From: Savitreella phatthalungensis | Lineage: Eukaryota | Length of the DNA: 64,000 nucleotides | Direction of reading: 5' to 3' | Assembly: GCA_051599415.1 (NCBI GenBank) | Contig: AP039703.1 | Coordinates: 186,001 to 250,000 of the forward strand | Shown here: positions 60,914 through 63,995 of the stretch, in pieces | Layout of the letters: every line of letters starts with the position of its first letter | Numbering within the stretch: the stretch's first letter is position 1 | The notes under the pieces: model-generated | What the model was told of the DNA's origin: nothing | Seen by the model: only the letters and a program-made list of their open reading frames with translations | Database searches by the model: none | Position numbers and translations under genes: made by a program

Positions 60914-61741
60914 TCATGGTACAGACTCCCCGTCAAACGTGGTCGCCACACTACCATCGGTGAAATCACCCTGGAACATCACTGCCGCCACCCAAGCACC
61001 ATCGATCTTGATCGCCTGCTCAATCCGACCGACGCGACGGTAGCCGTACTGATCCCAGAGCTTGATACTTGCGATCTATTGGTTGTCAAGTCAGCATTCA
61101 TGCGACAGAGGGAGGACAGCAGTAGTGGTCGGCCTTACGTTGGTCTCGAACACGAGGTTGTACACAGACGACCTGTATCCCAGGCGCGATGCGTAGTGCG
61201 GCATACTCCGGGCGAGCACTTTGCCATACTTTTGAGCCCGCTTGGTGATTGGTACGATGAACCCTGCGTTGCAGATGTGGGAGCAGTGTCCGATATAGTT
61301 AGGCTTGATCTGGACCGGTTGGCACCCGATGTCAGCTGCCGATCTGTTGAGAAGGCACGGAGAGTAAAGAGCGTCATACGTAGTAAGTGCCGAGCACATC
61401 AGCCTTCCAATCCCTGGAGTCGTCTAGCGAAGGACTCTCAGCGAGCATGACCACACCCGTGTATCCGAACCAGTATGCACCAAACTCCTCGTCATCCATA
61501 TGCGTGTCATGTGGGTCTATTCTTTCATCAGCTTATGAACCCACACAACTACTCAATCTTCCCAATCAAACGTACATGTGTTTTTTGCATCGACTTCAGC
61601 ACTAAAGCATTCTCGGAGGTATGTTACTAGTCCAGCTGGCGCCTCACCTTGCCGTACTGGTACCAGGTAAGCTCTGCCGGTAGTCGTCATGCAAGGTATC
61701 ACATGAAGCTTTGCCTGTGGCTTTATCGGTGATGCTCCCAT
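60914..61741 (-). CDS. GNAT N-acetyltransferase, Mpr1 (L-azetidine-2-carboxylate acetyltransferase)-like; 4 exons (61741-61576, 61516-61380, 61309-61139, 61075-60914)
   Basis: Splicing three GT-AG introns gives TYP...FGAYWF...VLGTYYIKPNYIGHCSHICNAGFIV...LGYRSSVYNLVFETNIASIKLWDQYGYRRVGRI, the Mpr1/Spt10-family pattern. Confidence 0.85.
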
Positions 61742-62224
61742 GATGAAGACCTTCTTCAGTTCGGCAAGTAAGAAGGTAACCTGGGTAGAGTCCTGCTAAA
61801 GGAGACGAAGGACGTGGGATGACATCTGTAAACTGTGTTTGTGCATCTTTCTGAAAGTTGTCGTTGTACGTCGACGTTGATTGTGGCGCCGCGCTGCATG
61901 AAGAGTTACATTTTGTGGCGAGTTTCACGTGATTCAGCTTACTCACTGAACTCAATCTAAAATATTGAATTTGTGCATTCAGTCTGATTTCATCCTAAAT
62001 TCATTCGGCAGAGGCAAGCAAGCAAGCAAGTTACAGTGAATCACTCCGATCGAGAGACACAGAATACACACACGGACAGAGAGAGAGAGCGCAAACTTCC
62101 AACACCAAGATCCAACCCGAGATCCACCGTCCAGGACAATCAGTTGAAAGAGAGCGTCGCCTTACATTAGTCAAGAAACCACATCCTCTTTTTCACTTCT
62201 CTACAGTCACCTCAAATCGCAATT

Positions 62225-62664
62225 ATGGGCGGCGGACACCAGGGCGGTTACAGTAAGTCCTATTCCTTCCGCGGCGCTAAGTCTTCTTCTGCCGACCGAG
62301 GTCTTTATTTATGAAGTGGACGTAGTTACTGACAGATTCTCCTTCAGTGGGTTGGTGGGGCTCCTTCCAGGGCGCTCGCCAGAAGGGCATCACGACGTAC
62401 TCTCTGTCGTCGTTCCAGCAGCGTGCGCTCGCTGGAGCTGCACACAACGCCGTCTTCAACACTTTCAGACGCGTCAAGAACCAGTTCCTCTACTTCGTTC
62501 CACCATTCATCGGCGCCTACTACATCTACACCTGGGCGAACGCAAAGTACGATCACCAATCCCCCTTTTTGACCAGAAGCAAGCGGCAGTACTGACATGA
62601 ACTTTTCAACAGGAATGAGTACTATAACTCAAAGGCTGGACACGCAGAACTTGCCGAACACTAG
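62225..62664 (+). CDS. QCR8: Cytochrome bc1 complex subunit 8; 3 exons (62225-62252, 62348-62546, 62613-62664)
   Basis: Spliced product GYMGWWGSFQGARQKGITTYSLSSFQQRALAGAAHNAVFNTFRRVKNQFLY...NEYYNSKAG; both introns contain TACTGAC branch sites. Confidence 0.95.
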
Positions 62665-62789: not shown

Positions 62790-63995
62790 TTACAATACGC
62801 CAAAACCCTTGGGATTGAAGGATCAGGTCAGCTTCTTGCTCTGCGCGACTGCGAAAATGCTCGGTTGAACTTACCCCGAGACCTGCGCCGCCAAAGCCGC
62901 CGAGACCGCCGATGCCAGTATTGATGCAGTTGAGGCAGAGTGCCCCGATACAGGTTTGGCAAGATTGGACTCCAAGACCTCCCTATGTTTCGTGAAGCAG
63001 TTGTGTCAGTTCCTGATGTTCGAGGAGAGGCAGGCTGTTTTGTTTCCTTACAAATCCTGCACCGACGAGCGATCCACCTAACCCGAACCCGCCTCGAATG
63101 CCTGGGAAAAATCCACCGAGGCCGAGCCCAAGTCCAATACCTGAACCAAAAATGCCTAGCCCGCCGCCGAAAGGACTGAAACCGAAGCCTGCACCACCGA
63201 TCGGTAGACCTCCTAGCCCCTGTATGTGCCCACCACGTCAGTGATCGATACGAATGCGTGAGCAAGTGTGTGTGTATGGACTTACACCGAGTCCGAAGCC
63301 TAGAGGACCACCCAGACCGAGACCAAGCCCGCCTAGTCCACCAAATCCGCGGAGTCCAAATCCACCAAACCCACCAAATCCCTAGTCACCACGTCAGTCA
63401 CCATGTTCTTTTGGTGAACAGACGACTTACAAACCCGCCGAGACCTGCGGATAGGAGCAACCGTTTCTTGATACCAGTCCTTGACACTACTACTTCTGCG
63501 CTCCCAGATTTACTGGCTGGTGAAGCGTCTGGGGTGATGCAGTTGATGCACGTTGCTCCAAGACATTGTAGGCAGGATTGCCTGCCGATGCCACCTATCC
63601 CACCGCCGACGATGCCCTTGAACCCGGACACACCCCCTCCCTGCCAACGTGTCAGTGTCTGGGGTGTCTAGGTGTGGGGGAGGACGAACGATCGCTGTAG
63701 CCCTGAAGCTGAGATCAGCAGTATCGTTGGCTGCAAAGCGGGCGTTGAGAGTGGTGGTGTCGCATTGTGATGCTTGGTCGAACGACATGCCGCTCAGAAA
63801 GTGGTCAGGCAACGGATTTGCGAACACACGCTGGAAGTCTCGTGTCGTGACAGACTCGACCACAGACATCACTGCCTGGATGTCCTCAAGCCCAGAAACA
63901 TCGCCGGAGGCGGTGGTCGCGTTAGGCTGGGTGCTGGGTACTTGAGCTACGCACACGCAGGCAAGTAGAGAGAGCGTGATGGCAAAGATGAACAT
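62790..63995 (-). CDS. Secreted Gly-rich, Cys-motif precursor protein (301 aa); 6 exons (63995-63690, 63640-63431, 63381-63286, 63219-63052, 62982-62875, 62807-62790)
   Basis: Signal peptide MFIFAITLSLLACVCVA; five GT..CTGAC..AG introns, all phase 0, join into one stop-free frame with a KKR site, GLG/GFG repeats and two QSCxxCxGAxCxNCI motifs. The last intron has an AAG acceptor and is the least certain. Confidence 0.8.

Follow-up and report, generated by a model that had tools for sequence, protein, structure and literature searches.

A hidden six-exon gene of Savitreella phatthalungensis predicts a secreted glycine-rich precursor with a Kex2-type site and duplicated four-cysteine modules

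Near one end of the window, the 64,000-nucleotide stretch of Savitreella phatthalungensis DNA analysed here (G000:C15:186001-250000, in a 12.7-Mb genome of 27 contigs), a first-pass annotation had proposed a hidden six-exon gene for a secreted, glycine-rich precursor of a family that it did not recognise. The locus raises three questions: whether the gene is real, what kind of protein it encodes, and what that protein might do.

We spliced the window sequence on the minus strand, reproducing both the coordinates and the translation that had been proposed. The open reading frame has 906 nt (301 aa plus a stop) in six exons separated by five introns. In window positions, its parts are:

63690..63995, minus strand: exon 1, aa 1-102, with the signal peptide, an acidic Ser/Thr-rich pro-region, sequons N25 and N90 and the lone C78
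63641..63689, minus strand: intron 1, 49 nt, GTTCGT donor, CAG acceptor, phase 0
63431..63640, minus strand: exon 2, aa 103-172, with a short Gly/Ile run, Cys module 1, a polar spacer, IKKR and the start of the Gly-rich peptide
63382..63430, minus strand: intron 2, 49 nt, GTAAGT donor, TAG acceptor, phase 0
63286..63381, minus strand: exon 3, aa 173-204, Gly/Phe/Leu
63220..63285, minus strand: intron 3, 66 nt, with an in-frame stop on retention and an exact 12-nt repeat in common with intron 2
63052..63219, minus strand: exon 4, aa 205-260, Gly/Phe/Leu/Ile
62983..63051, minus strand: intron 4, 69 nt, likewise with an in-frame stop on retention
62875..62982, minus strand: exon 5, aa 261-296, containing Cys module 2 and another Gly run
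62808..62874, minus strand: intron 5, 67 nt, GTAAGT donor, AAG acceptor; if it is retained, the frame stays open and yields a form of 345 aa whose tail is charged
62790..62807, minus strand: exon 6, aa 297-301 and the stop

All five introns start with GT and end with AG, in each case the first AG after a CTGAC branch site, and all fall between codons (phase 0). Retention of intron 2, 3 or 4 leads to a stop, and retention of intron 1 to a frameshift. Intron-like signals of 40-80 nt number five on the sense strand of the gene region and none on the antisense strand, compared with a window mean of 0.30 per 1206 nt (32 in the 64 kb, both strands counted). None of 2000 order-2 Markov simulations reached five such signals, and two reached four. 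The reading frame is marked by codons that start with GG, which number 17 in the model frame vs 8 and 2 in the other two frames for exon 2, 18 vs 2 and 1 for exon 3, 26 vs 5 and 0 for exon 4, and 13 vs 1 and 1 for exon 5; all four Gly codons are used (22/17/13/10). Enumerating 78 splice combinations gave seven frames longer than 301 aa. The longest of these, at 345 aa, keeps intron 5, and this intron has an AAG acceptor (found in 6 of the window's 32 intron-like signals); the last exon is therefore the least certain part of the model. Judged from the sequence, the hidden six-exon gene is real as first described and its predicted model exact. It is likely missing from public protein sets, as the exon queries did not retrieve it and its upstream neighbour is present there. 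Intron-rich, low-complexity secreted genes can be absent from such sets, and this Gly-rich gene would be an example.

The predicted protein reads as a secreted precursor with the following features:

63945..63995, minus strand: predicted signal peptide, aa 1-17 (by eye and hydropathy)
63702..63713, minus strand: LxxR, aa 95-98, a candidate second Kex2 cut just ahead of module 1
63536..63580, minus strand: Cys module 1, aa 123-137, C-x2-C-[LI]-G-A-x-C-[LI]-N-C
63461..63472, minus strand: IKKR, a Kex2 site at aa 159-162 and the sole KR/RR of the protein
62923..62967, minus strand: Cys module 2, aa 266-280, identical to module 1 at 10 of 15 residues

The signal-peptide region is the most hydrophobic 19-mer of the protein in a hydropathy scan and looks typical by eye. 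The pro-region (aa 18-98) contains 10 D/E, 4 K/R and 18 S/T as well as the sequons N25 and N90. Outside the modules, Cys occurs at C13, C15 and C78. IKKR, with an aliphatic P4, Lys at P2 and Arg at P1, fits the preferred Kex2 motif, given in section 4 of PMC8528282 as aliphatic P4, basic P2 and Arg P1. A kexin is encoded in the same genome (L196; Peptidase_S8, E 5.7e-42, and P_proprotein, E 2e-27). Together with the signal-like N-terminus, these features bear out the proposal of a secreted precursor with a Kex2-type site, as a prediction. We added two LxxR sites (aa 83-86 and 95-98) that the first-pass annotation lacked; the motif definition in PMC8528282 includes expanded sites of this type. 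A cut after R98 would yield a 64-aa peptide with module 1, in which case each product would hold a Gly run and one Cys module.

The duplicated CxxCx4CxxC motifs were confirmed, with Cys at 125/128/133/136 and at 268/271/276/279. The two modules are duplicates at the DNA level as well (46 nt, 74% identity). Ten of their 12 nucleotide differences lie in five non-Cys codons, and the other two are synonymous. When differences were placed at random, all four Cys and at least 10/15 identity were kept in 0.35% of 200,000 trials, with the module limits set after inspection. That the differences spare the Cys codons to this degree therefore points to selection on the module's protein sequence, for limits chosen post hoc. 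The duplicated module DNA and the 12-nt repeat in introns 2 and 3 suggest that the gene may have grown by exon-intron duplication.

The chain that would be released after IKKR is 139 aa long, with 62 Gly, 25 Leu, 16 Phe, 7 Ile, two Arg and no Asp, Glu or Lys, and all the residue counts first reported for it hold. It also contains 4 Pro and 5 Ala; 51 residues (37%) are F/L/I/V. It is 45% Gly, with a GRAVY of 1.03 and a net charge of +2. A glycine zipper is recognised by an enriched GxxxG or GxxxGxxxG periodicity, and the chain had been called one. In 5000 shuffles, GxxxG was not enriched (23 vs 26.6 expected, z -1.2) and neither was GxxxGxxxG (12 vs 11.3, z 0.2), and we dropped the label. What is enriched over shuffles is Gly-hydrophobe-Gly (28 vs 10.1 expected, z 6.4; doubled form z 4.6), with adjacent hydrophobes (6 vs 18.3) and GGG (1 vs 11.9) both depleted. 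No segment past the signal peptide scores as a membrane helix in 19-residue windows, the best of which is unfavourable for insertion at +3.1 kcal/mol.

The Gly fraction reaches 0.51 in an 80-aa window, vs the 0.25 used for silk-like structural proteins, which are delimited in the relevant part of PMC4944945 by a signal peptide and at least 25% Gly in an 80-aa window, a compositional class and no homology family. The index 2P+G is 0.50 for aa 163-301 and 0.56 for the core (aa 163-265). Both values miss the elastomer threshold of 0.60, below which elastin-like chains can form amyloid fibrils according to the account in PMC7061623 (Rauscher et al. 2006, as cited there and in PMC8786786). XGGZG-like motifs number 12 if F and I are allowed and two by the strict V/A/L rule. 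The Gly-hydrophobe syntax, the lack of an insertion-favourable window and a 2P+G below 0.60 therefore favour a self-assembling material over a lytic helix.

Are there related genes in the same genome? Protein searches with exons 1, 2 and 4 returned the gene itself only. The first-pass annotation had suggested a motif search for paralogs; it yielded a third copy of the Cys motif, in the gene L011, and exon queries yielded no full paralog. The pattern C-x2-C-x-G has 17 matches in the genome. Among the 12 inspected, two belong to the Gly-rich gene, one to L011 and one to L013, and eight are off-frame or triplet runs (frames partly by eye); the remaining five look like triplet runs. A second motif search gave 11 matches, all of which were inspected. 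L013 (L013:2381-3982, plus strand, contig C16) encodes a C2H2 zinc-finger protein with a Cys/Asp/His-rich N-terminus, presumably resembling a zinc-sensing regulator.

L011 (L011:2466-1045, minus strand, contig C11) encodes a secreted-type Lipase_3-like protein (E 5.9e-6) with Gly at the position where the lipase motif would have the catalytic Ser. Its Cys motif reads C-x2-C-I-G-x2-C-L-D-C and has a KR 27 residues downstream, compared with 26 in the Gly-rich gene, and in both proteins that KR has an aliphatic P4 and Leu at P1'. L011 has several KR sites and, by eye, a GPI-like end. Its open frame is 473 aa long; in the public model P0003 (423 aa), splicing removes the GPI-like end. Pairwise BLAST between the Gly-rich gene and L011 gave E 1e-4 for this one pair, which is not significant genome-wide. 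Hand-scaling from 6 matches per 596 billion bases, we would expect about 0.004 chance copies of the stricter pattern in this genome, a value to be read with the pattern having been chosen after L011 was seen and with eukaryotic zinc fingers raising the background. Whether the two genes are truly linked is, on this evidence, about a toss-up. Among 8000 scored candidates, the only relative of L011 was its own record. Another Lipase_3 protein, behind a membrane anchor, is encoded by L015 (G000:C6:359953-360423, minus strand), also with Gly at the expected position of the catalytic Ser.

A second secreted-type Gly/Leu/Phe protein is encoded by an intronless 259-aa open reading frame, L032 (L032:2946-2167, minus strand, contig C27). 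The predicted protein starts with a signal-like segment and has a KR at 40-41, two sequons and one Cys, which precedes a 105-aa run containing 57 Gly; its tail is charged. Its exact sequence was absent from the protein collection searched. L032 is the sole other Gly/Leu/Phe gene that we found, as none of 42 further sites of two Gly patterns was similar, a count that excludes one GGM cluster on contig C7 and two contig-end repeats. The Gly regions of the two proteins align with a score of 216, vs 179 +/- 13.5 for shuffles (p 0.007), and their N-terminal halves show no similarity (E 76). Given this modest score and the unrelated N-terminal halves, the two genes may be convergent.

We then looked beyond this genome, using single exons as queries, which lowers sensitivity. 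None of 438 candidates for exon 2 (proteins of 124-2000 aa) and none of 154 for mature exon 1 (152-2000 aa) was related. Against 1.84 billion representatives, exon 2 gave no relative among two matches, both long, repetitive and without the Cys motif. No Pfam or NCBIfam family scored above cut-off for the gene's exons, and PDB sequences gave no match for exons 2 and 5. The ESM Atlas returned no usable match for exon 2 or L032, a result that shows neither absence nor novelty. The strict Cys-motif pattern had no match in metagenomes; a relaxed pattern matched at least 120 stretches, and none of the 80 inspected had a Gly-rich context. In prokaryote genomes (six matches) and viral contigs (one), none of the seven had a similar context. 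The collections searched by pattern hold few fungal genomes, and Protomyces and Taphrina DNA lay outside the search. AlphaFold models of mature exon 1 and exon 2 were of low confidence (mean pLDDT 50; pTM 0.21 and 0.16) and were set aside. The gene thus appears to be an orphan in the sense of having no relative outside its own genome in the collections searched. The family that was not recognised at first likewise matched no known family in the Pfam, NCBIfam and PDB-sequence searches, and the exon-by-exon searches produced no strong match to a characterised one. Because no homologue was found outside the genome, conservation cannot confirm the frame or the motif.

How does the predicted protein compare with known systems? 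Hydrophobins have eight Cys, including two CC doublets, in one domain. Like them, the protein would be small and secreted, with eight Cys in its mature hydrophobic part and a proposed surface role. Unlike them, it has no CC doublet, its Cys form two separate CxxC-x4-CxxC blocks that cleavage would part, and no Pfam profile scored above cut-off with exons 1-5 scanned singly. The earlier judgement that this is not the 8-Cys hydrophobin pattern was therefore sound. A hydrophobin profile search of the genome gave no match, with controls equally silent, and the accessible parts of PMC4161775 and 10.1101/230532 yielded nothing on hydrophobins in Taphrinomycotina.

The Kex2-processed KEPs are also secreted, and here too related Cys modules, two in number, may land on separate peptides. 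The screen outlined in PMC6339444 requires at least four fragments after cuts at KR/RR or KK, vs two here from one KR and no RR; the kexin that it also requires in the organism is present (L196). Rep1 of Ustilago maydis is described in the part of PMC3133707 that bears on it as being cut by Kex2 into 10 peptides of 34-53 aa and one of 229 aa, hydrophobic products that form amyloid fibrils for attachment to hydrophobic surfaces. Our predicted protein resembles it as a prepro-protein with a Kex2 site and a hydrophobic product in a plant-surface fungus. It differs in having a 139-aa, 45%-Gly chain and 4-Cys modules, in a species without hyphae, and it has one KR where the Rep1 family, compared by description, requires about ten short Kex2 peptides.

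Precursors of the candidalysin/Ece1 type contain several KR-flanked peptides, one of which is a cationic amphipathic helix. With one KR, 45% Gly, two basic residues and no favourable insertion window, the present chain does not belong to that type. Dikaritin-type RiPP precursors have repeated KR-flanked cores and a DUF3328 neighbour; we found no repeated cores, and no DUF3328 among the neighbour ORFs scanned. Silk-like structural proteins and the hydrophobic domains of elastin come closer, sharing a Gly-rich domain, Gly-Gly-hydrophobe and XGGZG-type words and, possibly, a separate cross-linking block; the N-terminus, signal-like by eye and in hydropathy, may be a further likeness. The resemblance is one of composition, and the present protein differs from them in being fungal, in lying below the elastomer threshold and in having a Kex2 pro-region. 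Animal silk and elastin chains use Val/Ala/Pro/Tyr where this one has Phe/Leu. Among fungi, the AGLs and Gly/Asn-rich GpRICs of Glomeromycotina, as PMC8786786 presents them in part, are Gly-rich surface proteins that annotation often misses, the GpRICs having KR sites. They are Pro/Ala/Gly- or Gly/Asn-rich, poor in hydrophobic residues, often zwitterionic and GPI-anchored, whereas the present chain is Leu/Phe-rich and nearly uncharged; with 4 Pro, 5 Ala and 51 F/L/I/V in 139 aa it is no AGL. In kind, we would place the predicted protein with self-assembling proteins that are secreted and rich in Gly, and with surface peptides released by Kex2. We did not find this combination described in the literature searched, which was largely without subscription journals.

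We propose, at roughly an even chance of being right, that the gene encodes a lineage-restricted, Kex2-matured, self-assembling and disulfide-linked surface coat or adhesive of a leaf-surface yeast, working like Rep1 with an elastin/silk-like syntax. The precursor would enter the ER, where its charged, glycosylated N-terminal half would keep the sticky half soluble. Kexin in the late Golgi would then cut after KR162 and possibly after R98. The first cut would free a hydrophobic chain of 12.4 kDa and the second, if made, a peptide of 6.1 kDa, so that each product would have a single Cys module. Once secreted, the Gly-hydrophobe chains would aggregate, either as fibrils rich in beta structure or as a film, on the wall or at a wax or air interface, and disulfides formed by the Cys modules would link them with one another or with proteins of the wall, the lipase-like L011 perhaps among them. 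In favour of a coat, the second gene L032 has the same Gly-hydrophobe-Gly syntax (z 5.5). Kex2-released surface fibrils have a precedent in Rep1 (PMC3133707), and Cys motifs that join surface proteins have one in Aga1-Aga2 (PMC6023273, in the part concerned). Two proteins encoded elsewhere in this genome are identical to NCBI entries labelled S. phatthalungensis. The description in PMC8877625, as far as it covers these traits, places that species in the Taphrinales, isolated from leaves and causing no symptoms on the leaves tested, and budding without hyphae in ordinary cream-to-pink convex colonies. Because the species is described as budding without hyphae, a repellent-type role in aerial hyphae does not carry over. 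Of the three possibilities first raised for the chain, a surface-coating or amyloid-like one appears the most plausible, and a membrane-active one looks weak (+3.1 kcal/mol, two basic residues).

If the coat reading holds, it would add a further route to a water-repellent or sticky fungal surface, besides hydrophobins and repellents: Gly-Leu-Phe chains of elastin/silk-like type, switched on by Kex2 and joined through a disulfide module. Such a protein could also be of use as a self-assembling biomaterial. Fungal adhesion molecules are poorly described beyond Candida and Saccharomyces, with Taphrinomycotina accounting for 1% of adhesion papers by the figures given in PMC6023273. A bolder version, which we regard as a long shot, is an independent fungal block-copolymer material, in which Kex2 would unmask the Gly/Leu/Phe chains, the mobile 4-Cys module would serve as a covalent staple to a wall-anchored, dead-lipase-like L011, and L032 would be a co-polymer. 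If true, this would be a new type of leaf-adhesion or water-proofing system in Taphrinomycotina yeasts, with an origin independent of elastin and hydrophobins.

Rather unlikely, in our estimate, is that the protein is instead integrated in the wall as a structural or spore/resting-cell protein, a disordered elastic filler or phase-separating matrix whose C-terminus may be a weak GPI signal. The core value of 2P+G (0.56) is close to the 0.60 threshold, and L011, with the same Cys module, has a GPI-like tail by eye. Disordered Gly-rich surface proteins of Glomeromycotina, described in the pertinent part of PMC8786786 as elastic or interchangeable and some with KR sites, would be a parallel, but the AGLs are poor in hydrophobic residues there, vs 37% F/L/I/V in the 139-aa chain. 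Moreover, Gly makes up half of the last 20 residues, a weakly hydrophobic segment and by eye a poor GPI tail.

Gly-rich hydrophobic antimicrobial peptides exist, and the prepro architecture and the hydrophobic, slightly positive released chain (GRAVY 1.03, net charge +2) would also suit a membrane-active antimicrobial or killer-type peptide, kept safe by its pro-region until Kex2 activates it for use against competitors on the leaf surface. Killer toxins are matured by Kex2, according to the section concerned of PMC8528282. We consider this reading improbable, as GxxxG is not enriched, no 19-mer favours helix insertion, two basic residues in 139 are few and lytic peptides tend to be shorter than this chain, and the ORFs scanned nearby include no immunity- or transporter-like neighbour.

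A poorer prospect still is a host-facing effector or elicitor, or a secreted metal-binding protein, with the 4-Cys module as the active part and the Gly-rich chain as its carrier. So hydrophobic a chain would serve badly as a carrier, and disulfides are favoured along the secretory path. In this genome, L025, L026 and L030, intracellular zinc-finger-like proteins, have the same C-x2-C-x4-C-x2-C spacing. Only the spacing is shared: the modules have no further flanking Cys/His ligands and the present protein has a predicted signal peptide; the structure models were too poor to judge. The protein fits the candidate-effector screen for Protomyces (80-333 aa, signal, at least four Cys; 10.1101/594028, in the part on selection), but the species was symptomless on tested leaves (PMC8877625, same description). 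Finally, that the gene is silent or spliced otherwise (intron 5 kept, or phase-0 cassettes skipped), with 301 aa not the main product, would agree with its absence from the public protein sets searched and with the open 345-aa frame and its charged tail, as in L032, but it is very improbable given five clean splice signals unmatched in 2000 simulations, an intact frame, the use of all four Gly codons and the conserved Cys.

On the left side of the gene, the window encodes a CTLH/RING protein, a Sel1-repeat protein, an adaptor mu subunit and UcrQ (Qcr8). Upstream on the same strand, past the window end, are two open reading frames without a family above cut-off, followed by Mbf1. The nearest neighbours are:

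Window 62171-62620, plus strand: Qcr8 (UcrQ), intron-containing and convergent with the Gly-rich gene, with about 170 nt between its end and the stop of that gene
L002:4223-4999, minus strand: ORF of 251 aa; a Myb-like match is weak and falls below cut-off
L002:5244-7316, minus strand: ORF of about 650-690 aa, matching no Pfam family, with Cys in two clusters

The Gly-rich gene and these two ORFs form a small island without assigned families between Qcr8 and Mbf1. Two further observations were made in passing. On contig C12, about 40 copies of a 4-base repeat (L012:2790-2960) lie upstream of a gene that is bHLH-like by eye. In the window itself, an intron-containing gene on the minus strand (60914-61800) looks GNAT acetyltransferase-like by eye, its 110-aa fragment having no Pfam match.
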